Shown: positions 7,283 through 49,136 of the stretch, in pieces
How positions within the stretch are numbered: position 1 is the first letter of the stretch
Layout of the letters: each line of letters opens with the position of its first letter
Virus record (IMG/VR): IMGVR_UViG_3300025674_000058
Span: 1 to 52,846 of that record
Source of the DNA: a virus
Lineage: Duplodnaviria > Caudoviricetes
DNA length: 52,846 bases
Reading direction: 5' to 3' (one strand)
Notes under the pieces: model-generated
The model's database searches: none
What the model was told of the DNA's origin: nothing
The model's input: the letters and a program-made list of their open reading frames with translations, nothing else
Program-made: the position numbers and the translations under genes

Positions 7283-7563
7283 GTAGTATTAATGTGCATA
7301 AAAGAACAAGATTGAATCAGCGACAAGTACAGTCAAATTCTTGTTTTTTCAATGTTGACGAAGATATAATTGTAATAGTTGACCGTGAAAAAATAATATT
7401 TAAAAAGCCAACAATAGATTATATGGGCAAAACAATAAAACCAAAAGCCTTGTCAAGTGGGTGGGTTACATTTTCGATTGTAGCAGATTTACCAATTACA
7501 AAAGAATTAGAATTTGACGATGAAGAAAGCACGGAAGATAGATTGGTAGTATATTACCGCTAA
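7219..7563 (+). CDS. cassette-borne hypothetical protein (cassette A1, 7155-7563)
   Basis: 114 aa; ATG inside the attC loop; stop TAA lies in the attI-like core; GTTAGCGGTAGTAT (7276) matches the reverse complement of ATATTACCGCTAAT (7551) at 12/14. Confidence 0.8.
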   Translation: MKDKEQNIKKQQGNGVLPCVSGSINVHKRTRLNQRQVQSNSCFFNVDEDIIVIVDREKIIFKKPTIDYMGKTIKPKALSSGWVTFSIVADLPITKELEFDDEESTEDRLVVYYR

Positions 7564-7603
7564 TGTCGGCTATGTGAACCAAAAGTATAGAATAACGGAG
7601 GTA
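7558..7603 (-). mobile_element. attI-like site A
   Basis: TAATgtcgGCTATGTGAACCAAAAGTATAGAATAACGGAGGTA, one of four copies; core AAC changed to AAT. Confidence 0.7.
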
Positions 7604-7675
7604 GGTAAATAATTACGCCACTTTTTACGTGTTGTTTAATTATTTTGCGTATGTTTGCCAAACAAATAAAAACAA

Positions 7676-8098
7676 ATGAAAAAAGTATGGGATTTTTACC
7701 ACGATAGTAAGTTTGTTTACTCTTCGTTGGATTTGGTTGATATGAAAAGCTACGTTAAAGACTACTTGGGTAGTGAGTGGGAAAAGCGTGGCGAGCTTGC
7801 GGTTTGGGACAGAACGGTTGACGGTTTAAAAGAAACTTGCCGAATTAGCTTGCGCTCTTACAAGGGTTTAGCTCTTGTTGACCGAAAAAATTACTATTCA
7901 AACAAAAAAATTCGGCGAAAAGTTGACGCTGAATTAAAAAAGTTAGCATATTTGCAAGCACAAATAGGAACTAAACAAAAAGATGACGAACAAATAGTAC
8001 GTGAAATGGCGGAGATTACAGAAGTAATAAACACCATAGACCCTACTTTTCTAAATAATGAAAACGAATATGACGCAGAAACAGAAAGAAAGAGTTGA
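7676..8098 (+). CDS. hypothetical protein
   Basis: 140 aa ORF; promoter box TATGTTTG 7650-7657. Confidence 0.75.
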   Translation: MKKVWDFYHDSKFVYSSLDLVDMKSYVKDYLGSEWEKRGELAVWDRTVDGLKETCRISLRSYKGLALVDRKNYYSNKKIRRKVDAELKKLAYLQAQIGTKQKDDEQIVREMAEITEVINTIDPTFLNNENEYDAETERKS

Positions 8099-8537
8099 TA
8101 AAATATTGGAAGTTGTATCAATGGTAAACAACATACCAATTAGTGAGATAAAGCAAAAAGGCTCAAGGAACAAGTACGTAGTTCTTTCCAAAAAGGTTTG
8201 TATGTACTTGATTAAAAACGACCCTTGGTTAAGGAGAATGACTTTAGAGTCCGTCGGGGCTATTTTCCAAACAGACCACTCCAACACCATACACCACCTT
8301 CGTAGGTGTGAGGAAGCTATGACCCCTGATAGGATGGGGCGGTTCACAAGCAACCCGAATTTAAGAAAGGTAATACTTGACTGCCAAAAATTACTTGAGG
8401 TAATTCACGGCATAAAGCCAAGTAAACCAAAAACTGAAAACCTTTGGGCTTTAGTAAAGGGATTAGAAGAACAAAGGGATTATATAGAAAACGAAATTCA
8501 ATTAGCTAAAAACAAAATTAACGCTTTATACCAATGA
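8058..8537 (+). CDS. DnaA domain-IV-like HTH DNA-binding protein
   Basis: SRNKYVVLSKKVCMYL..MTLESVGAIFQTDHSNTIHH resembles Bac_DnaA_C (RDHSTV). Confidence 0.7.
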   Translation: MKTNMTQKQKERVDKILEVVSMVNNIPISEIKQKGSRNKYVVLSKKVCMYLIKNDPWLRRMTLESVGAIFQTDHSNTIHHLRRCEEAMTPDRMGRFTSNPNLRKVILDCQKLLEVIHGIKPSKPKTENLWALVKGLEEQRDYIENEIQLAKNKINALYQ

Positions 8538-8776
8538 TAGTACCAAAAGGAAACTTAGTCTTAGTAGAAAAGATTGAAACAAAGAGCAAGATAGAACTTT
8601 CTCCAAGCGCAAAAGAACACACCCAAGAGGCTGTTGTTGTTCGGGTGGGGGATGCGGTCACTCAAGTCAAAGAAGGGGAGAAAGTCCTTCTTTCAAAGTC
8701 AAACAACATAGAGGTCAAAGAGGGGGGTAAAACCTATCAACTCGTTTACGAAAGCTCTATATTAGCGGCGTTATGA
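8534..8776 (+). CDS. groES: co-chaperonin GroES
   Basis: PKGNLVLVE, AVVVRVG, VKEGEKVL, LVYESSILA; 80 aa. Confidence 0.85.
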   Translation: MIVPKGNLVLVEKIETKSKIELSPSAKEHTQEAVVVRVGDAVTQVKEGEKVLLSKSNNIEVKEGGKTYQLVYESSILAAL

Positions 8777-8889
8777 TAGAACTTATTCATTTTGTGGCGG
8801 AGGAGCTAGGGCATCCCATAATCCAAGAGGACGCAGAAAGCATTTTGGATGACTTTTTGAGTGGAGATAATCGGGAATTATCCGATTAA
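8773..8889 (+). CDS. small hypothetical protein (38 aa)
   Basis: ATGA overlap with groES stop; MIELIHFVAEELGHPIIQEDAESILDDFLSGDNRELSD. Confidence 0.5.
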   Translation: MIELIHFVAEELGHPIIQEDAESILDDFLSGDNRELSD

Positions 8890-8909
8890 CAATGTAGATA
8901 ATAACAGAA

Positions 8910-9617
8910 GTGAACAACCAAGAAACATACTCTTTTAGTAGATTAAGTACCATAGAAACTTGTCCTAAAAGTTTTGAATACAAGTATGTTTTAGGAGAGT
9001 CAGAAGAGGGTAATTGGTTTTCTGATTTGGGTAGTTTTGGGCATTTGCTTTTGGAGCTTTACGACAGGGGTAAAATAAAAAACTTAGGTTCTGTTTACCG
9101 AAAGTATTTAAGAAAAAGGGTTCAGTTACCCACGTTTACTTGGGCGCACAAATGGGAACAACAGTGCCAAGACTTTTTCGACACCTTCGATGGTTGGTCA
9201 ACCGATGCCGTTTGGATAGAGAAGTACCTAAACTTTCCAATAGACGACTTCAACCTTCAAGGGTTCGTGGATAGGGCGAGTTACACCAAGAGGGGCTTTA
9301 CAATAGTTGATTACAAGGTGGCTAACATTTTTAAGGGCGAAAAGCTCCGCCAAAAGGCACGACAACTTTACCTTTACGCTTACGGAACAAAACAAGAAAT
9401 TGGAGAGTACCCAAGAGATTTAATCTTTTATCATTTCCGCCAAAAGACCCCCGTAATAATACCTTTTAAAGAAAAAGATATGATAGAGGCAGTTGATTGG
9501 GCAAAGAGAATGGTGGAGAAGATAAGAACCGAAAAAGAGTACAAACATAATTTTGATAAGTTTTTTTGCGAAAATATTTGTAGTTTCAGAAAAATTTGTA
9601 CCTTTGGTGAACTATGA
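8910..9617 (+). CDS. PD-(D/E)XK exonuclease (AddB/Cas4-like)
   Basis: YSFSRLS..CP, GFVDR, IVDYK, QLYLYA, C-terminal FCENICSFRKIC. Confidence 0.88.
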   Translation: MNNQETYSFSRLSTIETCPKSFEYKYVLGESEEGNWFSDLGSFGHLLLELYDRGKIKNLGSVYRKYLRKRVQLPTFTWAHKWEQQCQDFFDTFDGWSTDAVWIEKYLNFPIDDFNLQGFVDRASYTKRGFTIVDYKVANIFKGEKLRQKARQLYLYAYGTKQEIGEYPRDLIFYHFRQKTPVIIPFKEKDMIEAVDWAKRMVEKIRTEKEYKHNFDKFFCENICSFRKICTFGEL

Positions 9618-9763
9618 TAAAAGATTTAATAGAAGAACTAATTGAACAAAAGGCAAACCCGTATCAAGCACTCGTTGTTTTATCGGTTATGCAAAATGAC
9701 ATTAGCGCGGCAAAAAACTTTTTGGAGTGTTACGAAGAATACTTAAATGACTTACCTCGATGA
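9614..9763 (+). CDS. small hypothetical protein (49 aa)
   Basis: ATGA overlaps at both ends; promoter box TACCTTTG 9599-9606. Confidence 0.55.
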   Translation: MIKDLIEELIEQKANPYQALVVLSVMQNDISAAKNFLECYEEYLNDLPR

Positions 9764-10560: not shown

Positions 10561-10759
10561 GAGCGCAAAAGGCTTGGAACGCGGTTGCAAACGCACAAGT
10601 AAGAGTCCATTAGATTGTTCGGAACATAACGACTGCGCTCTTTTAGAGTCTAACATTTATCGGATATGTGTAAAGAAAGCAGACAATAACGGAGTGCTTC
10701 TTAACCAAAACAACACTTAGCTATTTCTTTGTTTATCTTTGCACTAAATTAGTGCTTAA

Positions 10760-13123
10760 ATGTCAGACAGGCTATTAGGTTTTCCTTCTCCCTTTAAAAC
10801 CGCAAAAGAAAAAAAATCACCCAAGTACGGGTTAGAGTACGCTAAGGCTATTTGGAGTCGCGCACAACACGGGCGGTTCGACGCTTTCTATTCCCGCCAA
10901 AAGCGAATAATTGAAAACCGAGAGTGGGCTAGGGGTACACAATCAATAGACCACTTAAAAGACCTAGTTTCCACAGGGGGCGACCTATCGTACCTTTCTA
11001 TGAATTGGAACGTAGCAAACCCAATCCCCAACTTAGTAAACACCTTTGTAAACAAAACCGTAGAAAGAGATTACGATGTGGTTGTGTCAGCCCTTGACAA
11101 AACAAGCAAGGGAGAGCTTGACAAAATTCGATTAGAAACCTACAATAAGGTTTTTATGAAAAAGAACAAGGCTCGATTGGAAGAGTTGGGTTTAAAGATT
11201 TCCGATTTGGAAGCCGTTGAGTCAGCGCCTGATAGTTTCGCGGATGCTGATTTTGATTTAGAGCTAAACGCCAAAACCGAGCTAGAAGAGTTTCTTGAAA
11301 CGGGTATAAACTTCGTATTTAACAACAACGGAATAGAAGAAATAAAGGAAACGGTTGCGAGGGATATTTTTGAAAACGGTTACGGCTTTGTTCGCACTGG
11401 ATTCGACCACAACCGAGACCCTTACATTCGGGCGGTTGACATAAAAAACTTCGGGTTCTCATATTGTAAGAAAAGAGATTTCAGCGATTGGGCTTATTTT
11501 TACGAAATTCTTGAAATGCCCCTTAGCCAACTTAGAATGCGTTTGGGGGATAAAGCGTTCACAGAGGATGAATGGTTCAACATCGCTAAGTCAAGCGCGG
11601 GTCAGTACGGAAACCAATCGTGGACTTACGGTTCTTATTACGGAGAAAGAAATTATGATTTTAGCGACTACGCTGATTTTAATATTTTGGCGATGGATTT
11701 TGTCTTTAAGACTGTCGACCAAAAAAGGTTCATAAAGAAGCAAACAAAGAAAGGTAACGGATATTACTACGAGGAAAGGGATTTAAAACAAGACCTTAAA
11801 AAGGAGCGCGGAATTGAGCGCATAGATGATAAGAACATCGAAGTAATGTACGAAGGGCTTTGGATTGTCGGCACGCAGCACATTAGAGATTACAAGCTTT
11901 GCGAAAATATGCTTCGCCCGCGAGAGGACGGTATTTACTCAACAAGGGTAGTTAGCCCGTTTGTTGGTTTTGCCACAGACCTTTTAGATATGGAAACTAA
12001 GTCTAAGGTGGAGCAAATGACTCCAATAGCGGAACAAATGATGTTGCTTGACCTAAAGACCCAACAGATTATCGCGCAATCAAGACCGTCGGGTTTGGCG
12101 ATAGACGCTTACTCAATAGCTTCGGTTCAAGATGCTTTAGGAATAGATTACGACACAGAAGAGGCTATCGCGATGTACGACCAAAAGGGGTCTGTGTTCT
12201 ATTCGTCTAAAGGAGAGGACGGCTCGCACCAAAACAACCGCCCAATAACCGAGTTAGCAAACGGCATACCAAACAACATTATAACGGTAATAGAATTGTA
12301 CAACGCTGCTTTAGCAAAGCTTTATCAAGTGTCAGGGTTTAACCCAAGCGTTGATGGGACTAGCTCTGACAAGGATGCTTTGGTGGGTGTTGAAAGGATG
12401 CGAGAGGCTGCTCACAACAACGCGGTGCGCCACCTAACAAGTGCTTACGCGAAAATCATAAGTTCTGCCGCTAGAAACTGCGGGTTGTTGGTTCAAGATG
12501 CTTTAGAGTTCTACGGTAAGCAAAAGGGTTGGGATTTTGCTATTGGAAACCTTCGGGTGGAGGGCTTGAAAGATTCGGCTAAGTACAACTACGCTGAAAT
12601 GGGAATTACCATAAGGTTTAGACCCACCCACCAAGAGATGCAAGACTTCATTGATTCGTTGGCTATATCTTTACAAAACCAACAGATAGATGTAACAATA
12701 ATGACTCGCGCCAAAAGGATTGCAAGCACAAGTATAAAGGCTGCTGAAAGATACCTAGAGGGTGCGAGCAAGAAGTTCCAAGAGGCTAAGTTTAAAGAAA
12801 GCTTACAACTTCAAGAAGCCAACGGGAAGGTTCAAATGGAGTCTAACGTGGTATCTGAGCAACAAAAAAGAGAAACCTTACAGCTCGAATACGACCTTAA
12901 ACTACGCAACGAGATTGAGGTTTATAGGTTGGGTAGAATACCTCAAGAGGAGGTTCGCGGAGATAAGGATATTGAGCGAGCTATTGTAGAGGGAGACATT
13001 AAGAAAGAACTTGTGGAGTTGGCAACAGACCAAACCCCACAAAGCTCCGATTTAAGACAAACATCTATTCCAAAAGGTTCGGGTGTAAGAGAGCCGAAGG
13101 TGTTTCCTCAACAAGCGACGTAA
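10760..13123 (+). CDS. portal protein
   Basis: 787 aa; YGLEYAKAIW, DLSYLSMNW..PIPNLVN, VMYEGLWIVGT motifs of Bacteroidota/crAss-like portals; upstream of scaffold and capsid. Confidence 0.88.
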   Translation: MSDRLLGFPSPFKTAKEKKSPKYGLEYAKAIWSRAQHGRFDAFYSRQKRIIENREWARGTQSIDHLKDLVSTGGDLSYLSMNWNVANPIPNLVNTFVNKTVERDYDVVVSALDKTSKGELDKIRLETYNKVFMKKNKARLEELGLKISDLEAVESAPDSFADADFDLELNAKTELEEFLETGINFVFNNNGIEEIKETVARDIFENGYGFVRTGFDHNRDPYIRAVDIKNFGFSYCKKRDFSDWAYFYEILEMPLSQLRMRLGDKAFTEDEWFNIAKSSAGQYGNQSWTYGSYYGERNYDFSDYADFNILAMDFVFKTVDQKRFIKKQTKKGNGYYYEERDLKQDLKKERGIERIDDKNIEVMYEGLWIVGTQHIRDYKLCENMLRPREDGIYSTRVVSPFVGFATDLLDMETKSKVEQMTPIAEQMMLLDLKTQQIIAQSRPSGLAIDAYSIASVQDALGIDYDTEEAIAMYDQKGSVFYSSKGEDGSHQNNRPITELANGIPNNIITVIELYNAALAKLYQVSGFNPSVDGTSSDKDALVGVERMREAAHNNAVRHLTSAYAKIISSAARNCGLLVQDALEFYGKQKGWDFAIGNLRVEGLKDSAKYNYAEMGITIRFRPTHQEMQDFIDSLAISLQNQQIDVTIMTRAKRIASTSIKAAERYLEGASKKFQEAKFKESLQLQEANGKVQMESNVVSEQQKRETLQLEYDLKLRNEIEVYRLGRIPQEEVRGDKDIERAIVEGDIKKELVELATDQTPQSSDLRQTSIPKGSGVREPKVFPQQAT

Positions 13124-13389
13124 ATCTCTTTACATCGGTTAAGAAACTGAAACACGCCTAAGTTAAAAACAAAGGCTATCTTCTCTAAAGAAAGAAGTGG
13201 TGGTGTGTGGTTTCCTTTTTCTATTTTAAGAATTAAGCTTCGACCAACCCCCGCTAATTGCGCGAGTTCGTTTTGCGACAACCCCGCTTGCTCTCTTAGT
13301 TTTAGCACGCCATAGGCGATACATTTATTTGTTTGCTTATTATAAGCCTCAAACCTTTTGCTTTCCAAAATTACATTAGATACTTCCAT
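13108..13389 (-). CDS. XRE/Cro-type HTH transcription regulator
   Basis: LREQAGLSQNELAQLAGVGRSLILKIEKG..P.L..LEKIA; own promoter box 13397-13404. Confidence 0.85.
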   Translation of the reverse strand: MEVSNVILESKRFEAYNKQTNKCIAYGVLKLREQAGLSQNELAQLAGVGRSLILKIEKGNHTPPLLSLEKIAFVFNLGVFQFLNRCKEIYVAC

Positions 13390-13479
13390 ACGGCTGCAAA
13401 GATACAAAAATGTTTTTAAAAGCAAACAAGAGGCAGTTTTTTTTCGGGGTATTTTTGCAATAATTAAAAATTAGTTGAT

Positions 13480-14610
13480 ATGAACGAAGCTTTATCTAAG
13501 GCAGTAAACGAGAGTTTGGGGTTTTCAAAACCCAAAGAAGAAGAAACTAAAGCGGTAACGGAAGAAGCCGTAAGTCAGGAGCAAGCCCCTCAAACTGAGC
13601 AAACTCCTGAAACTAAAGAAGCTCAACAAGAGTCGGTTCAAACCGACGAAAGTTCTTTGAATAGCAAACCTAATTCGTCAACCGAAACGGGATATGATTG
13701 GAAGGCGGAAGCCGAAAAAAACGGTTATATTCCTAAAGACTCGTATGTTCCCGAAGACCCTTTCATTGCTAAAATGATTGAGTTCAGAAAGAACAACGTA
13801 AACATCGAAGACCCTAAATTTTGGGCGACGGTGCAAAAAGATTACACTGCGTACGATTTAAATGACGCGGAGCAAGCTTTGAACATTGTTAAAGAGGGTT
13901 TACGTTTAAGCGAGCCTGACATCACTGATAAGGAAATCAACGCGGAGTTAAGCGAATTTAAAGTCCTTGGGGAGAGACCTCCTTTAAGGGAAGACTTTGA
14001 AGACAGCGAAGACCCTGAGCGTGCTTACAACAAAGCCATGAAGTCTTACAATGACCGAATGGAAGTTGCGGAAGGTAAATTAATAAGACAAGCGAGAGAG
14101 CATCAGAAGAATCTTTTGGAGCATCAGAAGTCTTTGCAATTACCGTCTGTACAAAGTAAGGAGCAAGAGCAACTTTTAGCCCAACAGCAAGAGCAAGCAC
14201 AGCGAGCTTTTGAATCGGCTACGAGTAAGTTTCTTGAAGATTTCTCAAAGGTGAGTGTAAAGATTGGTGATTGGGATTTTGAACTTGAAGTTCCTAACGA
14301 GGAAAAGACTGTTATTAAGGAAGGCATCCTTAAAAGCGACCAATTCTTTAACCGTTACATTACAGGAGACAAAGACAATCCCATTGACTACTCAAGCCTA
14401 TCAGAAGACATCTCTTGGGCGAACAAAGAAATACGCAATCGTCGTTTAGAGGCGATTATTAACCAAGCTAAGTCAGTAGGTGGCGAGGAGAAAATTGTTG
14501 GGCTTAAAAACCAAAAAGCCCCGACTATTGAGAATCCGCAAGCTAAAAAAGCATCTAGTTTACTAGACCAAATTGGCGAGCAGTTAATCAGTAAGGGGGT
14601 TAAATTTTAA
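13480..14610 (+). CDS. capsid scaffolding protein
   Basis: acidic, coiled-coil, low-complexity N-terminus, between portal and capsid. Confidence 0.7.
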   Translation: MNEALSKAVNESLGFSKPKEEETKAVTEEAVSQEQAPQTEQTPETKEAQQESVQTDESSLNSKPNSSTETGYDWKAEAEKNGYIPKDSYVPEDPFIAKMIEFRKNNVNIEDPKFWATVQKDYTAYDLNDAEQALNIVKEGLRLSEPDITDKEINAELSEFKVLGERPPLREDFEDSEDPERAYNKAMKSYNDRMEVAEGKLIRQAREHQKNLLEHQKSLQLPSVQSKEQEQLLAQQQEQAQRAFESATSKFLEDFSKVSVKIGDWDFELEVPNEEKTVIKEGILKSDQFFNRYITGDKDNPIDYSSLSEDISWANKEIRNRRLEAIINQAKSVGGEEKIVGLKNQKAPTIENPQAKKASSLLDQIGEQLISKGVKF

Positions 14611-14627: not shown

Positions 14628-16067
14628 ATGGGATATAACGTAACGCCGAGTGCGACAACTTCGGCAACAAACAGAAATTACATCAACTCACAAGTGTTAA
14701 GCACTGCTTATAGCTCTGTGACTATTGAGAAACCAAACGTGTACGACGAACTTGTTCGCGGCTTTGGTTCGGGCAACATCTCTACCTTCTTAAAAATGAT
14801 GGACAGAGAGGCTTTGACCGACAACCCTGTATTCATTCACGGAGAGAAAGATTGGATTCGTGACGTAATTAAGGTTACTGCGAGTTCAGGACACGGAGCG
14901 GGTGCTGCGGTTACTTTGACAGTAGCTACTGCTTACCGCGATTCAGTTTCTAACTCTGCTGCTCCTGAGTATTTAGCTTCGGGAACTACTACTAACATTA
15001 TGCCTATTGCGCAAGATGTTATCCAAGTTCCTAACGGCTCAGGTGGATTTGTTGAGTGCTTGGTTACTGCTGTTAGCGGAAACGACTTCACTATTTACCC
15101 TGTGGTAACTGGCGAAACTGTTCCCAATGTAACAACTTCAACTGAGATTATCAGAACTGGTACTGCTGTTAAAGAAGGTTCTTCTGCGACAAGCTCACGT
15201 TCAACTCAAATCTCAAACTACACCAACAACGTACAGAGAATGCGCGATTACCATGAGGTAACGGGTACTGCTCTTAGCTCTATCACTTGGTTGAATAACT
15301 TGGGTGAAGACGGAAACGGTTCTGCTTGGTATTTGGAGGGTATTCGCGATGTTTACATCAACCACCAAAACGACTGCGAGTTCCAAATGTTGACTTCTCA
15401 GAAGATTACAAACGCTACTTTGACAGCCGTCAGTGGTCAAGGTACGACAATCAAAACTGAGGGTTACATTCCTTTCGTAGAGTCTAACGGTCAGCGCGAG
15501 CAATACACAGAGGGTTCTTGGTCTTTAACAGACTTGGAAAACATGGTAAAGAAACTTTACAAGTATAAAGGTTCTACCGAAAACGCCCTTTGGGTTGGAC
15601 ACAATTTGTCTATCGAAATCGACAACGTAATGCGTAACTCAGAAGGCTTGAAAGCTGGGGGTATTCAATACGCTGGTGTAGGTGGAGAAGAGCGTTCTGT
15701 TAAGTTCGGGTTCAACTCGTTCACTTACGGAGACATCAGCTTCCACAAGAAAACCCTTGAGGCTTTCACTTCACCTGTTGTTTTTGGCGCAGACGGCTTC
15801 AAATACGCAAACATGGGATTGGTTATTCCAATGGACAACACGATTGTAGCAAAAGACGGGACAAACTCCGCAAGCACAACCGTACCAAGTTTACGTATGG
15901 AGTGTCTTAACCGACCTGACATGACTAACGGCTACCGCGAATGGGTAACTGGTGGTGCAGGTTTGGATGACCCAACAGACGGAGATGACGTTATGAAAGT
16001 TCACTTGTTGTCTGAAAAAGGGCTTCACGCCTTTGCAGGACACCGACACGGACAGTTCTACGTTTAA
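14628..16067 (+). CDS. major capsid protein
   Basis: 479 aa, biased codon usage, position after scaffold, strong terminator after it. Confidence 0.85.
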   Translation: MGYNVTPSATTSATNRNYINSQVLSTAYSSVTIEKPNVYDELVRGFGSGNISTFLKMMDREALTDNPVFIHGEKDWIRDVIKVTASSGHGAGAAVTLTVATAYRDSVSNSAAPEYLASGTTTNIMPIAQDVIQVPNGSGGFVECLVTAVSGNDFTIYPVVTGETVPNVTTSTEIIRTGTAVKEGSSATSSRSTQISNYTNNVQRMRDYHEVTGTALSSITWLNNLGEDGNGSAWYLEGIRDVYINHQNDCEFQMLTSQKITNATLTAVSGQGTTIKTEGYIPFVESNGQREQYTEGSWSLTDLENMVKKLYKYKGSTENALWVGHNLSIEIDNVMRNSEGLKAGGIQYAGVGGEERSVKFGFNSFTYGDISFHKKTLEAFTSPVVFGADGFKYANMGLVIPMDNTIVAKDGTNSASTTVPSLRMECLNRPDMTNGYREWVTGGAGLDDPTDGDDVMKVHLLSEKGLHAFAGHRHGQFYV

Positions 16068-16289: not shown

Positions 16290-16339
16290 TTCTAACGTAT
16301 CACGGCTATGTGAACTAAAAGTATAGAATAACGGAGGTA
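16290..16339 (-). mobile_element. attI-like site B (no complete cassette)
   Basis: TAACgtatcacgGCTATGTGAACTAAAAGTATAGAATAACGGAGGTA; nearly identical to site A but 8 nt spacer. Confidence 0.65.
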
Positions 16340-16386
16340 TCATACCTAGAACATCACTATTGGGTTTTTATTCGTAATTTTGTAGT

Positions 16387-17957: not shown

Positions 17958-19388
17958 ATGGCTTTCTCTTCTGAACTAAGAATTTTACCTTACCCCTCGC
18001 ACAACGCGAAGACAATTACCATTCAAGATGCAACAACCTACACTAGCTTGGCTATTGACGCTGGTGACGAAAGGGGTATTATTAAGATTGTTGACCCCGA
18101 TGGTCTAACGTCTTACAACAATACAAGCGTTGGTTCTCCCGACATAACTGCACTATCTAAAACTGTTAGCTCGGTTAGCGCGGCTACTGATATTATAACA
18201 ATGAGTGCGCCACACGGGTTGGTTACGGGCGACCCTGTTCGTTACAACGCGGCTACTTCTGCGGATTCAGGGCTTACAAACAACGCGAATTACTTTGTTA
18301 TTTACGTTTCGGCAACCACCTTAAAGTTAGCCACCACCTTAGAAAACGCAAAGGCGGAAACCGCAATTAGTCTTTCTGCGGATGCCGTTGGCGCGGAAAA
18401 GTTGATTTACAAAGCGGCTACTATTGCATTACCCTTAGATGGGGATGGAAACATAAAGCGAGGGGGTTACACCGTAACGCTTACCTTGTTTGATAAGGAC
18501 GTAACGGGAACAACCTTTGAGAGAAGTATTTATTTTGATTACGATTATTCTCGCCCAAGTATTGCGCTATCAATTAGCCATTCGGTAATTAACCCAATTT
18601 TCTTTAAATCGGTTGATGAAACTTCGTATGATTACAACGGGGTAACGCCAACGATAACAAGAACCCACACGTTGTTCTTTCCAAAAGACAAAGGCAGTTA
18701 CAGTGTTACAACAAAGACACTAAACACAAACTCTTATTACACGGGGGCAAGTACGGTTTATTTGCTTTCTGTGACCGATTACGTTTTTGCCACGGCTTAT
18801 TACACAGACGACACGGCAAACCTTGTTAATTGGAGGTTGTCTGATTCCTTCTCTAAAAATGAGGCGTACACAGTAAGCGACTCTACGAGCGTTTGCGATT
18901 ACTACTCTTGCATTGAAAACTTGTTTGACAAGGTTCAAGAAAAAAGATTAAAGAACGCAAACGATTACGAGTCTTTGAAGGCTGATTTGGATTGGGCTAC
19001 GTTAAATTGGCAGATGTTACAAAACGCAATTAACTGCAATAAATCTGAGGATTTCCAAAAGTACATTACGCAAATCGAAGATGCAACAGGATGTACAGGG
19101 ATTTGTGATAGTGGACAAGTAACCCTAGTTACAGGGATTGGGGTTGTTGATGTTCTTGATAAGAGATACGATGTAACAGCGCCTACGAACTTAGCTTCTT
19201 ACACGTTCCTTAATTCAAGTGGAAACGCTGCCCTTATAGGGTTTAACTCAAATAACGGAGATGTTTTAGTTTACGTTGACGGGTTGTTAGACACGGGTGG
19301 AAGTTTAGATTCAAGCACGGGTACTTATACTTTCGGTGCAGTAGTAACAAACGGGGCTGTTATGACGGCTGTAATAAATCAATTATGA
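17958..19388 (+). CDS. virion structural protein with inserted beta-rich module
   Basis: T/S-rich 476 aa; HGLVTGDPV..GLTNNANYFV..LKLATT module; Cys-containing helical segment. Confidence 0.7.
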   Translation: MAFSSELRILPYPSHNAKTITIQDATTYTSLAIDAGDERGIIKIVDPDGLTSYNNTSVGSPDITALSKTVSSVSAATDIITMSAPHGLVTGDPVRYNAATSADSGLTNNANYFVIYVSATTLKLATTLENAKAETAISLSADAVGAEKLIYKAATIALPLDGDGNIKRGGYTVTLTLFDKDVTGTTFERSIYFDYDYSRPSIALSISHSVINPIFFKSVDETSYDYNGVTPTITRTHTLFFPKDKGSYSVTTKTLNTNSYYTGASTVYLLSVTDYVFATAYYTDDTANLVNWRLSDSFSKNEAYTVSDSTSVCDYYSCIENLFDKVQEKRLKNANDYESLKADLDWATLNWQMLQNAINCNKSEDFQKYITQIEDATGCTGICDSGQVTLVTGIGVVDVLDKRYDVTAPTNLASYTFLNSSGNAALIGFNSNNGDVLVYVDGLLDTGGSLDSSTGTYTFGAVVTNGAVMTAVINQL

Positions 19389-37979: not shown

Positions 37980-38572
37980 GGGAAATAGATGGAGAGATAG
38001 CGATTAAGTTTTTAACCAAGCATTGGAAGAGTGTGTTGTCTTTGGGGCTTATTGTGGCGTTGTTCTTTTCGGTTCAATCTTGCAAGAAATACCAAGACGA
38101 GTATTTCATAGCCCAAAACAACTACGAGTCTGCGTTAGATGAAACCCGCGAAACGGTACGAAAAGAAATACTGACAAGAAAACAACTTACTGCGCTTTAC
38201 AAGACTGAGTTGGACTTGTTGCGTGACTCTTTAGCAATAAAACCAAAGACAGTAGAGCGTCTGCAAATCATACGCACAGTGGAACACGACACGGTTATAT
38301 CCGTAATTCGAGAATCGCAAACAGACCTTCACATAGCTGAGTTTAAGAAGGGTTGCACCGAAGGAAGTTTTGTTTGGGTTGACGGGGATTCTTTAGGCAC
38401 TTTCACTATCAAGAATAATAATTCTTTTTTAATAGTTGACCATTGGCAAAGGTCGAGGTTGTTTGGTTGGGGGTGGACTCCAAAGTGGGGGCGTAAATTC
38501 GGAAACGTCTCGGTTATTAACGAGTGTAACAAAGACACCCTTATTCAGAACAAAGTAATAGAAGTACGATGA
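37973..38572 (+). CDS. putative spanin-like lysis protein
   Basis: N-terminal TM, coiled coil, HDTV, RLFGWGWTPKWG C-terminus. Confidence 0.55.
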   Translation: MLGEIDGEIAIKFLTKHWKSVLSLGLIVALFFSVQSCKKYQDEYFIAQNNYESALDETRETVRKEILTRKQLTALYKTELDLLRDSLAIKPKTVERLQIIRTVEHDTVISVIRESQTDLHIAEFKKGCTEGSFVWVDGDSLGTFTIKNNNSFLIVDHWQRSRLFGWGWTPKWGRKFGNVSVINECNKDTLIQNKVIEVR

Positions 38573-40101
38573 GTAACTTAATAGGGTGCGATGCTATGCT
38601 TGTTGGTGGAGGAGGCGGTGGTACTCCTGGTGCGGATGCAACGGTAAAGAATAGCGATGAGAGCTACACAAACACGGTTGCAAGCGGTGATACTTTAGTG
38701 CTGCCCGACATTACAGTAACTGATAGCGACGGCAGTACGTTTACTCAACCTTCTGTTGTGAATGTAGTTTGTAGTTTAGCGGCAGATGGTACGGTGAATG
38801 TAAATAGTGTATTTTTTGACAACGTAGCTTCAGGAGGAACCTTAAACATCGAGGTAAGACAATCGACTGGAATGACATTAATAGGTTCAAAACAAGGTTC
38901 ACATTTTAGAATACCTGACAGCGTAATCACTTTAGACAACACAGATGGCACGACATTATCGACTACAAATGTACTAGCCACAGACTCATTAACTCTAACA
39001 GCACCCGATGCTACTGCTGTGATAAAAAACACGTTAAATGCAGTTTTGAGGTCGGAGTTAATTGCTAGTAATGTTAGCGAGGATATTATTATTGGCGATG
39101 CGACTATAAACATTAACAAAAGCGATGGTACTTTAATAGCAAGCGCAACTATAACAGCAGAGGGTTCAGGAGTTTACAATGTCGCTGATTCAACTGTCAA
39201 TGTGGTTAATACTCTTGGCACAGTTTTATCAAGTAACTTAGTAAAAGCCACAGAGACTGACAATGTTTTAGCACCTGATGCAAATGTAGAGAACAGCGAC
39301 GGCAGCTACTTAAACACGGTTGCAAGTGGAAGCACGTTGGTACTGCCCGACATTACAGTAACTGATAGTGACGGCACTACGAGTAGTTTTCCTTCGGTCA
39401 AAAATGTAGTTTGCACTCCTGCTGCGCCTACTCCCCCTTTAATTACTTTGTATCAAAGGCCTAATAAACCAAACCAACTTATATCTTATGATACTTATGA
39501 TGCGGGTTGGCAATTAGCAAATGGAGTTTTTAATAACTTCAATCAAACTACAGCTTCAGGCGTACAAGTAAGAACCCAAATATTAGATTTTGCAACTGAC
39601 TCTACAGGTAATACCCTTTTTTACAATAATCCATTCGGAAACAAAGACAGGTGGACTGATGAAAACGGACTTCAAGTTTATGGTAATAATGTCGCTATCG
39701 ATAATTTAACTGGTATTAGGTGGCCTCACGTTATCGATGACCCAAACTTCAGTAACAACACCAAACTTTATAGTACCTTATTGAGCGATGCAGTAGCATA
39801 CACAGACCCTTTAGGGAACTCAGATTATTATGTACCTCCGTTTGAAATTATTATGACTTTGCCTATAATAGACTTTAATCAATCAACCATTCAATATGCA
39901 GCAGGTTTAACACCTAACGGCGTTTCTGGCAATCATTATTTTATTTCATCTACAAGTGGGCCAAATTTTACAACTTGGTTTTATAGAGTAGCTCTTAGAA
40001 ATAGAGCGCAAGTTGCATTTGACCAAAAATCTTTTACCGAGTTTAGAAACTTTGCCGTTGTTTGCGCTATATTACCACAACCAATAATACCAAACCCATG
40101 A
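38569..40101 (+). CDS. tail fibre / receptor-binding protein
   Basis: V/T/S-rich repeats (DATVKNSD..LVLPDITVTDSDG twice), C-terminal NNPFGNKDRWTD..IDNLTGIRW (DUF1566-like). Confidence 0.75.
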   Translation: MSNLIGCDAMLVGGGGGGTPGADATVKNSDESYTNTVASGDTLVLPDITVTDSDGSTFTQPSVVNVVCSLAADGTVNVNSVFFDNVASGGTLNIEVRQSTGMTLIGSKQGSHFRIPDSVITLDNTDGTTLSTTNVLATDSLTLTAPDATAVIKNTLNAVLRSELIASNVSEDIIIGDATININKSDGTLIASATITAEGSGVYNVADSTVNVVNTLGTVLSSNLVKATETDNVLAPDANVENSDGSYLNTVASGSTLVLPDITVTDSDGTTSSFPSVKNVVCTPAAPTPPLITLYQRPNKPNQLISYDTYDAGWQLANGVFNNFNQTTASGVQVRTQILDFATDSTGNTLFYNNPFGNKDRWTDENGLQVYGNNVAIDNLTGIRWPHVIDDPNFSNNTKLYSTLLSDAVAYTDPLGNSDYYVPPFEIIMTLPIIDFNQSTIQYAAGLTPNGVSGNHYFISSTSGPNFTTWFYRVALRNRAQVAFDQKSFTEFRNFAVVCAILPQPIIPNP

Positions 40102-40761: not shown

Positions 40762-41202
40762 TTGTTAAAATGCCAAACGGCAAAAAGACAAAGGTTGTCA
40801 AGAAAAAAGGTTAACACACGCAAACGTTCCAAAAAGAAGGGTAAGTACCGAAGTAATTTTGAGGGTGACTTCGCGGCAACATTAAGCGTGCCTTTTGAGT
40901 ATGAGTCGCAAAAGATAACCTACGTTGTTCCGCGTACTTATACGCCTGATTTTGTTTTTGAAAAAAAAGACGGTTCGTTTATGTACGTGGAAACAAAGGG
41001 TGTGTTGGATGTTCGCTCAAGGACAACGCTACTCCACGCCAAGAAGTGCAACCCTGAAATAGATATACGCATAGTATTTCAAAGAGGTTCAAACACGATT
41101 AGTAAAATATCTGCAACAACATATTTAGAGTGGGCAAGGAAGAACGGTTTTCCTTGCGCGGAAAAAAGAATGCCGAGCGAATGGAAAAAAGAGTTGAAAT
41201 AA
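40762..41202 (+). CDS. T7 endonuclease I-like Holliday junction resolvase
   Basis: YRSNFE, FEYE, YTPDF, YVETKG, IDIRIVFQ, TYLEWARKNGF; exact start uncertain. Confidence 0.88.
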   Translation: MLKCQTAKRQRLSRKKVNTRKRSKKKGKYRSNFEGDFAATLSVPFEYESQKITYVVPRTYTPDFVFEKKDGSFMYVETKGVLDVRSRTTLLHAKKCNPEIDIRIVFQRGSNTISKISATTYLEWARKNGFPCAEKRMPSEWKKELK

Positions 41203-42833: not shown

Positions 42834-44621
42834 TTATAGTTCTAAGCTACTTTGTAGAATCTTTTTGCTCCAATATTTTCTTATAGGGTCTATACCACCG
42901 CACTCAAAACCGCACAAGTCGGGGTTGGAGCGCAACATTACGGGTTCTTCGTTAGGGGTTGGTTTGCCCCCCGTTTCTGTGTCTTTTACCTTGTCTATGT
43001 GTATTTGGTTGTACATCCAATTTTCGGGGTCTTTAGTATCTCTGTGTATGATAATAAAGTCGTCCACCTTGTTTGCTTTGATTTGCCCTCCTTCTATTTG
43101 GCTTTTGTAGGGTCTGTTTATCTTTCCACCCTCCCCCTTGTCACGAGCGGCAGATGACGTTACGTGGTCGGCAACCCATACACTTGAATAGTTTTCTTTA
43201 AACACCCGAAGTTTGTTGAGGTTCGATATGTTTTCTATGTATTGGTTATCTTTTATCTCAAAAGAGTTGTAGGGGTCTGCCATAAGGCAATCGTACTCCC
43301 AACCCTCATCAAACACAATCTCTGCGCGAAGTAAAAAGTCCTCCAACGAATAAAACTTTCGGTTTGTCATTATCTTGTAATGTTCCGAGAACCACTTTTT
43401 TCCCGACTCAACCTCTTGCTTTGAGCATTCTTTTATTGGTTTGTTTAGATACAGTTCTATTATCTTTTTTCGGGCTTGCCCGTCGTTGTTTTCCGCAGAG
43501 TACACTAAGAACTTCCAATCGTTAAAGATAGCAGCAAGAACTGACAAGTACCACATAACCGTAGTTTTACCTGAGTTGTCCACCCCTCCAAACCAAACCA
43601 TTGTGTTTCGCTTTAACCTAAAGAAGTAGTCAAGGTTTTGCAACCCCGTTGAGCTTCCCATTTCAAGCGTGCCGTTTATCACAGCGTTAATGTAATCGTC
43701 CATTTCGCTATCGGAAGCTAAGAAGTCGTAATTACCCTCTTCGTTAATAGTAAACTCTACACTCTTTTCAATCTTTTTTGTTTCTTGAACGGGCTGGGCT
43801 TTACCGTAAGCTATTCCGTCGTCAATGGTCTTTAACGCGCCGTTCATGTCTTTAGGGTTCTTTGCCCTTATTTCATCTTCTAAAACTTGTCGGGCGTGGG
43901 CTTCGTCAATCTTTCCAATCGCAATGTAACCGCCCAATAGTTTTGCTGCCTTTAAAAGGTTTCCGTGCTTTTCTCCGTCCACACTTGCGCGAACCATTGA
44001 AACAGCAATAGATATTATTCGGTTGTTTCGCCTCTCTTGCGTTCCCCTTTTTATTTCACGAACCTCTTTTTTTGTCGCCATCATTTCCCAAACCCTAGAG
44101 TTCGGGTTAATGTAAATATCAGGGTCGTAAGACTCGTAGCAAAGCCTAGCAATGTTTTGTGAGGTTGTATCAAGTTCGGGGTATCTGTCCACAAAAGCAA
44201 GGTACATATCTTTGTGACGTTCTATATCGGGGCGGCATTTAACAAGAGCCTTTAGCCCGTTACCCGAAGGGGAAACCCAACAAGCGTAGATGTAGTCGTC
44301 CAACATCAAAACCTTCTTTTTAGCCGCAACGTCTTTTACCTTATCAAAGTCCAACACAAAAAACCCTGAGTGCGCAGTAATAGAGTTGTCATCCCGAAAA
44401 GAGGTGTACGTTGCTCCGTTAGACTTTACTTTTTCAATGGCTTTTCGGCACTCCCCGCCAAAAACAACCGAGGGCAAGTTCTTCTTTTGTCCACTATCAC
44501 CTTTTCTTATAGCCTCAACTATGTGCTTTGACTTACCGTCACGTATTCTTTGCAGCGCGGTTTTAATAGATATGTACTTCGGGTTGTTTGTGTCGAAAGA
44601 GTCCTTGAATATTGTAATCAT
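42834..44621 (-). CDS. primase (BT4734/VirE N-terminal type) fused to DnaB-like helicase
   Basis: KKNLPSVVFGG, HSGFFVLDFD, SPSGNGLK, ARLCYESYDP; Walker A GVDNSGKT, ADPYNS. Confidence 0.88.
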   Translation of the reverse strand: MITIFKDSFDTNNPKYISIKTALQRIRDGKSKHIVEAIRKGDSGQKKNLPSVVFGGECRKAIEKVKSNGATYTSFRDDNSITAHSGFFVLDFDKVKDVAAKKKVLMLDDYIYACWVSPSGNGLKALVKCRPDIERHKDMYLAFVDRYPELDTTSQNIARLCYESYDPDIYINPNSRVWEMMATKKEVREIKRGTQERRNNRIISIAVSMVRASVDGEKHGNLLKAAKLLGGYIAIGKIDEAHARQVLEDEIRAKNPKDMNGALKTIDDGIAYGKAQPVQETKKIEKSVEFTINEEGNYDFLASDSEMDDYINAVINGTLEMGSSTGLQNLDYFFRLKRNTMVWFGGVDNSGKTTVMWYLSVLAAIFNDWKFLVYSAENNDGQARKKIIELYLNKPIKECSKQEVESGKKWFSEHYKIMTNRKFYSLEDFLLRAEIVFDEGWEYDCLMADPYNSFEIKDNQYIENISNLNKLRVFKENYSSVWVADHVTSSAARDKGEGGKINRPYKSQIEGGQIKANKVDDFIIIHRDTKDPENWMYNQIHIDKVKDTETGGKPTPNEEPVMLRSNPDLCGFECGGIDPIRKYWSKKILQSSLEL

Positions 44622-46355: not shown

Positions 46356-46415
46356 TTTAATTTAAGTTTGGGCAAAAATACAAACGAAAAACAAAAGGTT
46401 GTGTTTGTTTTGAAA

Positions 46416-46461
46416 CACCTCTGTTATTGTCTACTTTTGGTTCACATAGCCGACGTTAGCG
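46416..46461 (+). mobile_element. attI-like site C
   Basis: cacctctGTTATTGtctacttttgGTTCACATAGCcgacG|TTAGCG; reverse complement of the site A/B motif. Confidence 0.75.
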
Positions 46462-46797
46462 TTCATTGCCAACAAAGTCCAGTATTAGTTTTCCCGCCAA
46501 AAGAATCATTGTGTTTTTATTTTCGATTGGTAAGTCCTCAAATTCAACTTTGCAATTTTCTTGAGTGTTCCAGTTAGTTCTTTTGGCTATCTGTTCGTAG
46601 TTATCGTGAAGGTATTTAGCTAAAACCATCGGGTCTGATGGCAACGAAACGCTAACACCGTATAACCGTAATTGCTCGGTTACGTGTTCCTCAATTAGCT
46701 TGTTCGCTTTATTTAGTTTTTCAAAACCTTCAGCATCATCTTTATAGCCGTCTTTACCCATATTTAGGATTTTAAGTGCAATTTCATTCTGTGTCAT
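46456..46797 (-). CDS. cassette-borne hypothetical protein (cassette C1, 46456-46847)
   Basis: stop codon in the GTTA core; start inside the attC loop; GTTAGCGTT (46455) pairs with AACGCTAAC (46648). Confidence 0.8.
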   Translation of the reverse strand: MTQNEIALKILNMGKDGYKDDAEGFEKLNKANKLIEEHVTEQLRLYGVSVSLPSDPMVLAKYLHDNYEQIAKRTNWNTQENCKVEFEDLPIENKNTMILLAGKLILDFVGNER

Positions 46798-47559: not shown

Positions 47560-47690
47560 ATATAACAACGTCTATAAATAATGCTAAAAGTGCAGGATAA
47601 TTCACTATTCATATCAATTAAGTCAGTTTCATCCTTACTTTTATGATACGGTGCATCATATCGCACTATTCATATACCTAGCCGTTAGCC
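47560..47690 (+). mobile_element. attC-like site C2
   Basis: TAAC-aacg-TCTATAAATAATGC ... GCACTATTCATATA-cctagcc-GTTAGCC. Confidence 0.7.
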
Positions 47691-47695
47691 ACCAT

Positions 47696-47917
47696 TTAAG
47701 GCGCTATTCCTTTAGTGTGTAGTTCCATATACAGTTTGCAATCTTGCAAAAAACCAGTGAATAAAAGTATTTCATCTTTTATTTCGTAAACGGTTTCAGT
47801 GCAGTTGCCCTCTGTCTTAATACTAATTGGTTTTGATTCCTTTACGTATAAATGAAATACTGTTTTATAGTTAAAAATTTCGTTTGTTTCTTGCAGCCTA
47901 TAAGTGAATCTTTCCAT
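47696..47917 (-). CDS. hypothetical protein (possible remnant cassette lacking attC)
   Basis: follows the GTTAGCCACC core; no matching GGCTAAC found beyond its start. Confidence 0.7.
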   Translation of the reverse strand: MERFTYRLQETNEIFNYKTVFHLYVKESKPISIKTEGNCTETVYEIKDEILLFTGFLQDCKLYMELHTKGIAP

Positions 47918-47921
47918 AATT

Positions 47922-48062
47922 CTAAAGTTTTAGTTTTATTGCGTTGTACTTTCTTTTAAGTCGGTTAAATTCTTCCATGTTTTCGGCGGCTTCGATGAGG
48001 TGCAGTAAACCGATAAGTTGCGCCAATGTATCGAAGCTACCTTCTATCCAATCCTTGTTCAT
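47922..48062 (-). CDS. small hypothetical protein (46 aa)
   Basis: MNKDWIEGSFDTLAQLIGLLHLIEAAENMEEFNRLKRKYNAIKLKL; ATGA overlap. Confidence 0.55.
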   Translation of the reverse strand: MNKDWIEGSFDTLAQLIGLLHLIEAAENMEEFNRLKRKYNAIKLKL

Positions 48063-48262
48063 CTTATGTTTATTGCGTTGCCGTCTATGAGAAGCTTTCC
48101 TCTTTCTTTGATGAGTCTAAGCACCCAAGTTGGTTCATATTGTTCAATGAGAGTGCCACGAATTTTGTTTTTCCGCGCAAAGTCAAATATCTTTTGCTTG
48201 TCGTAAGCGCAAACAATAAGTCTATTGTCGTGAATCAGTTGAAATGTTCTGTGTTTTTCCAT
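48059..48262 (-). CDS. hypothetical protein
   Basis: 67 aa in a tightly packed operon. Confidence 0.65.
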   Translation of the reverse strand: MEKHRTFQLIHDNRLIVCAYDKQKIFDFARKNKIRGTLIEQYEPTWVLRLIKERGKLLIDGNAINIR

Positions 48263-48264
48263 GA

Positions 48265-48468
48265 TTATCTTTGCGCAGCTTCGCGCCCTTTTTTAAATCC
48301 AAAATTGTAACCGCACCGATAAGACCTACAATCTAAAGGTGATAGCGGACAAGGTGGGGTAAGAGGGCAAAGTGCTGTTTGTCCTTTCACATCTCGCCAT
48401 CCCTCGCAGTAACCGTCGTTAAACCCATCGCAATAAGTGAGGGTAAGTAATAGTATTAGTGTTTTCAT
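48265..48468 (-). CDS. small Cys-rich protein with hydrophobic N-terminus
   Basis: MKTLILLLTLTYCDGFNDGYCEGW..CPLTPPCP..YRCGYNFGF. Confidence 0.7.
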   Translation of the reverse strand: MKTLILLLTLTYCDGFNDGYCEGWRDVKGQTALCPLTPPCPLSPLDCRSYRCGYNFGFKKGREAAQR

Positions 48469-48472
48469 ACCC

Positions 48473-48658
48473 CTACAAAAGTAAACAATTTATTTTGTAC
48501 TCGTCGAAAAGATTTTGTAATTCTCTTTCGGTTAGTAGTTCTCCGCCCACGATTTTGTAGCTAACTTTATCTAAGTTGTCAAATATCATAAGCTTTTCGG
48601 GTAGGTTGCGCAGTTTCGCGGCGACTACCGTTTTCCCATCTGTTGCTATTACTTGCAT
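48473..48658 (-). CDS. hypothetical protein
   Basis: 61 aa in the operon. Confidence 0.6.
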   Translation of the reverse strand: MQVIATDGKTVVAAKLRNLPEKLMIFDNLDKVSYKIVGGELLTERELQNLFDEYKINCLLL

Positions 48659-48873
48659 ATTACTTCTCCTTTGTTGTTTATAACTATGTAATGCCCCGAA
48701 ATGGGGTGAACCGAAGTTTCAATATCTACTTCTTTTGGAAAACCTAAGTGCCAACCCTCCTCAATAAAAGAGCGTGGTACTTTAGGGTATCTGTTGTCAA
48801 AATTTGTGGCGATTGTTTCGTCGCCCCTAACAAGGCTTATTCGCCCGTCTTGTACTTCTACTGTTGTTGTCAT
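48649..48873 (-). CDS. hypothetical protein
   Basis: start at MTTTVEV gives ATGA coupling with the upstream gene. Confidence 0.65.
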   Translation of the reverse strand: MTTTVEVQDGRISLVRGDETIATNFDNRYPKVPRSFIEEGWHLGFPKEVDIETSVHPISGHYIVINNKGEVICK

Positions 48874-49067
48874 CGTTGTTGTTTTTGTGCGCAATTAACA
48901 AACCCTTGCTTTAATAGCTCATTTATAAAAGCATTTAGTTTTATCCTATTCTTGAAGCAAGCAATATCAAAGAAGTCGCTCCCATCCTTGTGTTTCTTTT
49001 CTCCGTCATAGTAAGAAACTAAATACTTTACCTTTCCCACGCTGTGTTTTAAATTAAATCTCTTCAT
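48870..49067 (-). CDS. conserved small phage protein
   Basis: VGKVKYLVSYYDGEKKHKDGSDFFDIACFKN. Confidence 0.75.
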   Translation of the reverse strand: MKRFNLKHSVGKVKYLVSYYDGEKKHKDGSDFFDIACFKNRIKLNAFINELLKQGFVNCAQKQQR

Positions 49068-49091
49068 TTCATTTTTGTTTTTGTGCGCAAA

Positions 49092-49136
49092 CGCGCTGTT
49101 ATTGGCTGCTTTTAGTTAACATAGCTGCCGTTAGCA
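49092..49136 (+). mobile_element. attI-like site D
   Basis: cgcgctGTTATTGgctgcttttaGTTAACATAGCtgccG|TTAGCA; fourth copy of the motif. Confidence 0.75.

Follow-up and report, generated by a model that had tools for sequence, protein, structure and literature searches.

The closest described counterparts of the element considered here are the PeSLs of T4-type phages, which are described as repeated cassettes that reach from a stop codon to the following start codon and combine a stem-loop with a promoter of the host type (Arbiol et al. 2010, PMC2839356); recombination between them leads to indels and replacements among close relatives (PMC2839356; Comeau et al. 2014, PMC4122927). Promoter-carrying intergenic repeats are also reported for the halovirus HF2 (PMC8707807). 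The element in question is an oriented sequence of approximately 45 nt that is dispersed over several intergenic regions of the IMG/VR virus record IMGVR_UViG_3300025674_000058; the entire record (52,846 bp, classed linear and approximately 94% complete) was analysed and is referred to as the window. A preliminary description had interpreted four copies of this sequence as stand-alone primary insertion sites of the integron attI type. A further point of reference is provided by the modular theory of lambdoid phages with its boundary or linker sequences between the modules of mosaic genomes. According to the explanation favored here with moderate confidence, the sites represent one oriented intergenic element that belongs to a PeSL-like mobile regulatory cassette recombining by homology, and they are not attI sites.

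A 17-nt core pattern was matched four times in the window, each time without mismatch (7569-7585 and 16305-16321 on the plus strand, 46434-46450 and 49109-49125 on the minus strand), at a chance expectation of 1.07 matches with up to three mismatches; a 30-nt pattern that additionally includes the 3' block also yielded four matches, compared with 0.00 expected and none in any of 100 shuffles. A profile of 12 copies placed the sites at 7556-7603, 16291-16339, 46461-46416 and 49138-49092 (E-values of 3e-16 to 4e-12). The four positions of the preliminary description, and the orientation with the genes it had assigned to them, were thus confirmed; indeed, all copies are co-oriented with their flanking genes. 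Copy c1 (7556-7603, plus strand; profile E-value 3e-16) contains the TAA stop codon (7561-7563) of the open reading frame (ORF) 7219-7563, and c2 (16291-16339, plus strand; 2.6e-13) is located 220 nt past the major capsid gene, without a convincing ORF upstream. On the minus strand, c3 (46416-46461; 6e-16) includes the TAA (46458-46456) that terminates ORF 46456-46797 and forms the head of the operon containing the primase/helicase gene, and c4 (49092-49138; 3.9e-12) begins 8 nt past the stop codon of ORF 49141-49338.

The count of four was too low. A decayed fifth copy, c5 (10660-10697, plus strand), was recognized as a member of repeat family D4 and by the profile (10660-10695, E-value 1e-4) upstream of the portal ATG at 10760, and a canonical copy is present at this position in a relative that is 96% identical (contig L027). 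In addition, positions 50007-50047 (minus strand) tentatively represent a probable element remnant with an internal deletion: It starts at the stop codon of ORF 50048-50404, is followed by a terminator-like hairpin (50004-49983) and was not detected by the 12-copy profile. Comparison was extended to close relatives of the window phage (L001, L027, L028, L035 and L037, 92-100% identical in the overlaps), to further contigs described below, and to a second motif-bearing phage, G001, a genome of 33,409 bp that is rated complete and has direct terminal repeats; its 83%-identical relative L026 was included. Additional gaps of the window, L027, L037 and G001 contain truncated copies or half copies; the existence of decayed and truncated copies indicates that single copies are dispensable. 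A role of the half motif TAACGG as a general gene-end signal was considered and dropped, as the counts of AACGG, 15 in the intergenic DNA (3,995 nt) and 103 in the coding DNA (49,167 nt), amount to only a 1.8-fold enrichment against a general strand bias. The pentamer is skewed on the gene strand of the window (103 occurrences versus 32 of the complement in the coding DNA of all ORFs); since it is common there, part of the impression of half copies is inflated, and the TAACGG half motifs probably include some real remnants and others that arose by chance.

Alignment of 14 copies from the window and the related contigs revealed the near-invariant blocks CGG, TATGTGAAC, AAAAG and AATAAC, with a 5-nt variable stretch preceding the AATAAC block and a less conserved beginning of approximately 7 nt (YAACGNC). 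The stop codon of the upstream gene is positioned inside the core, or not more than 10 nt before it, in c1, c3 and c4 and in the copies of L027, L030, L033, L034, L037 (both copies), G001 and L026. The order of the components is stop codon, 45-nt core, short and weak stem-loop, Bacteroidota-type promoter box (in four of the five window copies), A-rich leader and ATG. Boxes of the form TAnnTTTG together with A-rich leaders, which we take to be typical of Bacteroidota, are present in the intergenic regions of the window; a sigma-70 scan is unsuited to host promoters of this type. At the copies, TAnnTTTG-type boxes are located at 7650-7657 (c1), 16376-16383 (c2), 46380-46373 (c3) and 10735-10742 (c5). 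In c1 the remainder of the cassette (7604-7675, plus strand) consists of a weak stem-loop, a T-run, the box and an A-rich leader in front of the ATG at 7676; a 5-bp stem-loop and then the box follow c2 after position 16339; c3 continues (46356-46415, minus strand) with a stem-loop, a T-run and the box to the ATG at 46355; and c4, which has no promoter box, continues (49068-49091, minus strand) with a stem-loop (GCGC/GCGC) and then an A-rich leader in front of the ATG at 49067. When 11 copies were folded as RNA, a short hairpin appeared directly 3' of the core in most cases, and the core itself had neither a dyad nor a stable fold (z-scores of -1.65 to +1.82, 7 of 11 positive). The core also contains an ATG directly followed by TGA (e.g. 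window positions 7572-7577); in three copies (c4, c5 and one of L037) the TGA is lost, and the resulting frame of seven codons ends at a TAA or TGA in the 3' block. Given the fixed spacing, this pattern may be due to chance.

Sequence similarity is not confined to the core. The c3 cassette is 74% identical to that of c1 over 85 nt (repeat family I1), the c1 cassette shares approximately 79-82% identity across 92-100 nt with those preceding the GroEL gene in L030, L033, L034 and L037, although the flanking genes differ, and the c4 cassette is 79% identical over 61 nt to the sole cassette of the unrelated phage G001. As core, hairpin and box are repeated together, the repeated unit is the entire gene-boundary cassette of 70-110 bp, of which the 45-nt motif constitutes the 5' part, and it extends from one stop codon to the following start codon. 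Like the linkers of lambdoid phages, it is a short conserved intergenic stretch found in different phages, between which modules would be exchanged by homologous recombination; it differs from them in being a single defined 45-nt motif that is repeated within the genome in one orientation. The agreement with the PeSLs is closer: Both are short intergenic repeats of stop-to-start extent that combine a host-type promoter, putative in the present cassettes, with a stem-loop (here a predicted one), both are located beside small ORFs of unknown function and plastic genes, and both are found at the junctions where close relatives differ by an insertion, deletion or replacement (PMC2839356; PMC4122927). 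In contrast to the PeSLs portrayed there, the present cassettes possess an additional conserved, unstructured 45-nt block 5' of the stem-loop and a promoter of presumed Bacteroidota type, some of them (c4, G001) are promoterless, their stem-loops are weak, and a cassette of approximately 88% identity is common to an otherwise unrelated phage. The HF2 repeats resemble them in being intergenic, a few tens of bp in length and related to transcription (PMC8707807), but belong to an archaeal virus and have other sequences, and a promoter role of the core is only putative here.

Gene content beside the copies varied between close relatives. The contigs L030, L033, L034 and L037 share a cassette and the downstream phage GroEL gene (phrog_5725) at 91-98% identity, whereas four different alleles are present upstream of it: three unrelated DNA methyltransferase genes (phrog_67, L030 3077-3769; phrog_116, L033 207-1088, minus strand; phrog_56, L034 119-838, minus strand) or a 104-aa ORF. 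The homology of these contigs begins at the 5' edge of the core; the first approximately 7 nt vary with the upstream gene, and the remaining core stays with the downstream module. Apart from this GroEL slot the contigs with the methyltransferase genes are nearly identical, and the slot is likely to be a hot spot for the swapping of anti-restriction genes. At the portal slot, an extra stretch of 1.09 kb with three small ORFs is inserted in L027 between a TAACGAC fragment and the canonical copy (TAACGTC start), in the place of which the window has 28 nt and the decayed c5. The third event is a 2.2-kb indel: In L037 a cassette and five small ORFs are present that have no counterpart in the window, and the junction lies outside the core in a 22-nt repeat that corresponds to the -7 box region of two promoters. 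A junction in a promoter repeat is a signature of homologous exchange. In all three of the events seen, the junctions of the indel or replacement were in or at the cassettes. Furthermore, the contigs L027, L033, L034 and L035 end less than 150 nt downstream of a copy, which suggests branching of the assembly at these points.

In the proposed mechanism, the cassette would act in cis on transcription at operon boundaries, and the unstructured 45-nt core would most likely be recognized, in the form of double-stranded DNA preceding the promoter, by a protein. Because the same cassette is present at several boundaries and in co-circulating phages, it provides portable homology, at which general recombination would replace, insert and delete genes. 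The enzymes would be a RecA/UvsX-type recombinase, SSB and nucleases in the window phage and a Rad52-like protein together with an exonuclease in G001. Variation of gene content beside the copies was observed, and both phages encode general recombination proteins, while searches of the window and of G001 revealed no site-specific recombinase. The behavior as plug-in slots that the preliminary description had proposed is therefore considered real with respect to several copies per genome and gene content changing at the 5' edge, but it is most simply accounted for by homologous exchange at a portable regulatory cassette; the element would not be an integron attI site.

Several observations weigh against this explanation. 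The stem-loop is weak (the consensus of four c1-type cassettes has 8 pairs, -2.6 kcal/mol and 1 compensatory pair), and a generic terminator scan called no stem-loop after c1, c2, c3 or c5. The promoter consensus TAnnTTTG is our assumption, and no such box is present at c4 or at the copies of G001 and L026; for these copies a function as upstream promoter element is consequently impossible. The PeSLs have no block comparable to the 45-nt core, the function of which is putative. Approximately 5-6 copies per genome are few compared with the approximately 50 PeSLs of phage phi1. Finally, three alleles of the GroEL slot share an identical core from the eighth base on, so that all three junctions are located at its extreme 5' edge, and a fixed crossover would predict the same.

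According to a different proposal, the core would serve lytic phages of the Flavobacteriia type specifically for the capture of genes, with a fixed crossover after the first approximately 7 nt, served by an unrecognized recombinase of phage or host. YAACGNC would then travel with the incoming gene, and GGMTATG and the following bases would stay with the resident module. The pattern of the first 7 nt fits such a crossover, but equally donors that already carried the same downstream module would predict it, and the proposal is regarded as very unlikely. If it were true, several slots per genome would collect anti-restriction methyltransferases and other accessory genes, and the phages would possess an integron-like platform without an integron integrase.

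Still less probable is the original interpretation as stand-alone attI-like primary sites into which an integron-type integrase, host-encoded or unrecognized, inserts cassettes site-specifically. With attI1 the element has in common its non-palindromic character, a length of approximately 45-65 bp, three direct GTT-type boxes on one strand and one-sided gene variation. In agreement with this view, the change of gene content coincides exactly with the 5' edge of the core for two of the three events, the first approximately 7 nt follow the upstream gene and the rest follows the downstream module, the extra block of L027 is bounded by the TAACGAC fragment and a full copy with TAACGTC start, and a TAACGG-type half motif ends many small ORFs, although AACGG is, as stated above, merely a frequent pentamer of the gene strand (103 coding versus 32 complement). 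In contrast to attI1, however, neither an adjacent nor a distant intI, a GTTRRRY core, inverted boxes or attC partners are seen, several copies are present per genome, the element resides in a lytic-type phage, and its junctions do not all coincide. A tyrosine recombinase was found in neither the window nor G001: No recombinase of this kind was among the products identified by Pfam (73 ORFs) and PHROGs (72 ORFs), on which the gene identities of the window are based (the record being approximately 94% complete), and a six-frame search with PF00589 at E-values of up to 1 gave matches in neither of the two records (the window and the complete G001) but in all 14 control genomes. A scan for attC-like sites (RYYYAAC paired with GTTRRRY at 50-150 nt, with folding) yielded 28 raw pairs, of which 6 passed (0-1 in shuffles); all 6 are located within long ORFs, and the gaps adjoining the copies contain none. 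The boxes, which appear as GTTAGC, GTTCAC/GTTAAC and GTTATT on the opposite strand, do not fit GTTRRRY, as they disagree with it at the RRR positions; an inverted partner box is absent, and the core has no dyad. The three GTT repeats noted initially are not invariant: The outer box of c1 (TAAT in gene orientation) and of one L037 copy is ATT instead of GTT, and that of c2 lies 4 nt further out. A position at one end of a cassette array applies only loosely; c3 and c4 enclose ten consecutive ORFs of 61-113 aa, and the gaps between these ORFs contain no attC-like site. The core as the point of crossover is not supported by the 2.2-kb event, which removes or adds a whole copy and is joined inside the 22-nt promoter repeat, away from the proposed core; moreover, the c5 allele of the window is not a clean empty site, since 28 nt remain. 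As the genomes of 185,579 species were without a copy at the stringency used, none is located beside a host intI at that stringency. Lacking a tyrosine recombinase, attC neighbors, GTTRRRY and an inverted box, the integron mechanism is thus unsupported.

Pattern scans of IMG/VR gave true copies of the element at 2 of 12 loci and subsequently at 4 of 4 loci, and a metagenome scan at 10 of 16 loci; the other six of the latter (L025, L029, L031, L036, L039 and L040) were rejected as chance matches because the flanks were absent. A looser IMG/VR pattern matched 14 loci, of which 4 were already known and 10 were A-rich chance matches, and so added no true copy. The motif was absent, at up to three mismatches, from related phages whose portal is 39% identical to that of the window, including phage G002, which has no dispersed repeat of at least 20 nt apart from one 21-nt pair. 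In GenBank phages no match to the motif was obtained, the promoter part alone matching a Cellulophaga phage with an E-value of 0.4, and a megablast search with 25 kb of the window found no match. In the collection of 185,579 species, each represented by one genome, none of 41 and none of 26 pattern matches carried the flanking blocks, and both numbers are at about chance level; exact-pattern scans of this type miss diverged copies. The ideas of a host chromosomal motif, of a mimic of a CRISPR (clustered regularly interspaced short palindromic repeats) repeat and of a small-RNA target were rejected, as the flanking blocks were missing in all 41 and 26 matches. No paper was found to contain the string of a 13-mer of the core, and for 9-mers only unrelated titles were among the matches listed.

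The sole copy of G001 (14850-14875) is of particular weight for the portability of the cassette. It is identical to c3 at 37 of 42 positions (approximately 88%) and matches c4 from the core to the ATG, both flanking genes being unrelated; over the same 42 nt c1 agrees with c3 at 38 and with c4 at 29 positions, and hence copies do not group by genome. Besides the cassette, sharing between G001 and the window is limited to a DUF5675 protein (46% identity), a tail-fiber segment (83%) and a distant DnaA-domain-IV-like protein. This tail-fiber segment comprises 159 aa of the tail-fiber-like genes (window 38569-40101; G001 32788-33270) and suggests a shared host receptor and recent exchange. In G001, a 377-nt gap (9327-9703, locus L042) adjoining the primase-helicase gene contains approximately a dozen GTGTAACA/TGTTACA iterons and is likely, from this arrangement, a replication origin.

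The DnaA-domain-IV-like helix-turn-helix (HTH) protein of the window (8058-8537, plus strand; Pfam PF08299, E-value 2.2e-10) is encoded by the second gene downstream of c1 and is, inferentially, the sole candidate for a trans-acting partner of the core. The core could accordingly be an operator by which this protein autoregulates the c1 operon and controls the other operons headed by copies, an alternative that is unlikely. Among the families found, Bac_DnaA_C is the only DNA-binding Pfam family common to both motif-bearing lineages, and in both of them the gene is the second one downstream of a copy (G001 14142-14606, minus strand); the residues D-H-(S/A)-x-T, aligned to the recognition helix of DnaA, are kept in both proteins, and a 9-mer of the core fits six of the nine positions of what we take to be the DnaA box consensus. 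The two proteins are, however, only 24% identical over 70 aa, while the sites are identical at 37 of 42 positions; G002 has such a gene in a tightly packed operon (28030-28629) and no motif at up to three mismatches; the number of 9-mers outside the copies does not exceed expectation appreciably (12 versus 11.4); and copies of the c4 type have no promoter to control. Small proteins with an N-terminal DnaA domain IV HTH are encoded by all three phages (window, G001 and G002), and such proteins could serve in regulation or in interference with host DnaA boxes. Searches for further relatives of the DnaA-like protein gave near-identical ones only, and nothing relevant was found in the literature on DnaA domain IV in phages.

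The position of the copies at operon heads, in the orientation of the genes, would also be expected if the core itself were a promoter for a non-housekeeping holoenzyme, i.e. one with an alternative sigma factor of the host or a polymerase modified by the phage; it would then form tandem promoters with the boxes at c1, c2, c3 and c5, and c4 and G001 would have no promoter besides it. In copies that lack a housekeeping-type box, 25-27 nt separate the 3' block from the ATG, the sequence xxGAAC followed by CGG 16 nt later is reminiscent of extracytoplasmic function (ECF)-type promoters in their presumed consensus, and a factor supplied by the host would be in keeping with the occurrence in unrelated phages that infect the same host. 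Against such a promoter, which is held to be rather improbable, stand the replacement of the CG of the would-be -10 element by CA in c3, c4, G001 and L026, conservation of the "spacer" as strong as that of the boxes, the lack of any sigma factor or RNA polymerase family among the Pfam and PHROGs assignments of either phage, the lack of copies in host-type genomes, and the loss of spacing in decayed copies without apparent harm. The specific assignment as an ECF-type promoter was dropped because this CG is not conserved, and an antisense promoter was rejected, a TAnnTTTG box on the opposite strand being present in only approximately 4 of 11 distinct copies.

A comparably low probability is attributed to a function as RNA, in which an unstructured tract that concludes the upstream message and precedes the hairpin would bind a protein or another RNA and act as a nut/boxA-like antitermination signal, as a processing or stability site, or as a regulatory RNA derived from the 3' untranslated region. 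The element is strictly oriented with transcription and begins at a stop codon, its core is unstructured in the folds reported above, and the hairpin is followed by a T-run in c1, c3, L030 and L037; nutR of phage lambda is likewise situated between a stop codon and a terminator. But the T-run is absent after c2, c4 and the copies of G001 and L026, the hairpin sequences are not conserved, unlike those of boxB, and no complementary 18-mer in a genome had the flanking blocks. A known RNA family was rejected, as the whole window gave 0 Rfam matches at gathering thresholds, and so was structure within the core, since the 11 folds were no better than those of shuffles. A boxA-like signal was dropped as well: The rRNA leader of one Bacteroidia genome shows no similar block but only a generic GTTCATTGACAA-type one, which, coming from a single genome, is weak evidence.

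The gene content of the window is that of a phage whose nearest isolates, by the portal protein, are Cellulophaga, Flavobacterium and Maribacter phages at approximately 26% identity (Flavobacteriia podophages). PHROGs and Pfam identified a RecA/UvsX-type recombinase (1395-2270, plus strand), SSB (2377-2733), the large terminase (4397-6460), a GroES-like co-chaperonin (8534-8776, plus strand), a PD-(D/E)XK nuclease (8910-9617), the portal (10760-13123), the major capsid protein (14628-16067), endonuclease I (40762-41202) and a primase/helicase (42834-44621), the last on the minus strand, which also holds many small ORFs. By these family assignments RecA/UvsX, SSB, the PD-(D/E)XK nuclease and endonuclease I are the phage's own general recombination equipment. 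The contigs L037 (1-5570), L030 and L035 (1-3581) of close relatives chain window position 1 round to position 52846 and imply, at least as judged from these three, that approximately 8 kb are missing from the record; in the relatives this stretch contains the methyltransferase slot, a further copy of the element, the GroEL gene and small ORFs. The GroEL gene (phrog_5725, E-value 8e-122) is found at 3881-5368 in L030 and at 1621-3108 (minus strand) in L037. It and the GroES-like gene of the window are each located behind a copy of the element, and the two predicted products would form a phage-borne chaperonin pair.

The long late operon contains an ORF of 2,672 aa (28689-36707, plus strand) without a match in Pfam, PHROG or PDB sequences; its product may be a virion protein, either internal or ejected, or a virion RNA polymerase. 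A Cro/CI-type HTH gene (13108-13425, minus strand) is placed on the opposite strand within the structural region, between the portal and the scaffold/capsid genes. Further repeats comprise a tandem duplication of 153 nt (79% identity; 19610-19915) inside ORF 19385-20344, an internal 137-nt repeat of the tail-fiber-like gene (38635-38771 versus 39277-39413, 78% identity) and a paralogous pair of small ORFs (49153-49317 versus 50425-50589, 76% identity).

Promoters and translation signals of Bacteroidota differ from the textbook ones, and a conserved, unstructured core of 45 nt offers a well-defined target for finding an unknown transcription regulator in phages of this phylum. If the favored explanation is correct, mobile regulatory cassettes of the PeSL type would not be peculiar to T4-like phages of Proteobacteria but would have a sequence-defined counterpart in aquatic Bacteroidota-type phages, common to unrelated phages of one host pool. 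The element marks sites of accessory-gene exchange, as exemplified by three DNA methyltransferases in one slot before a phage GroEL gene, and provides a handle for locating slots of accessory and anti-defense genes in metagenomic phage genomes.

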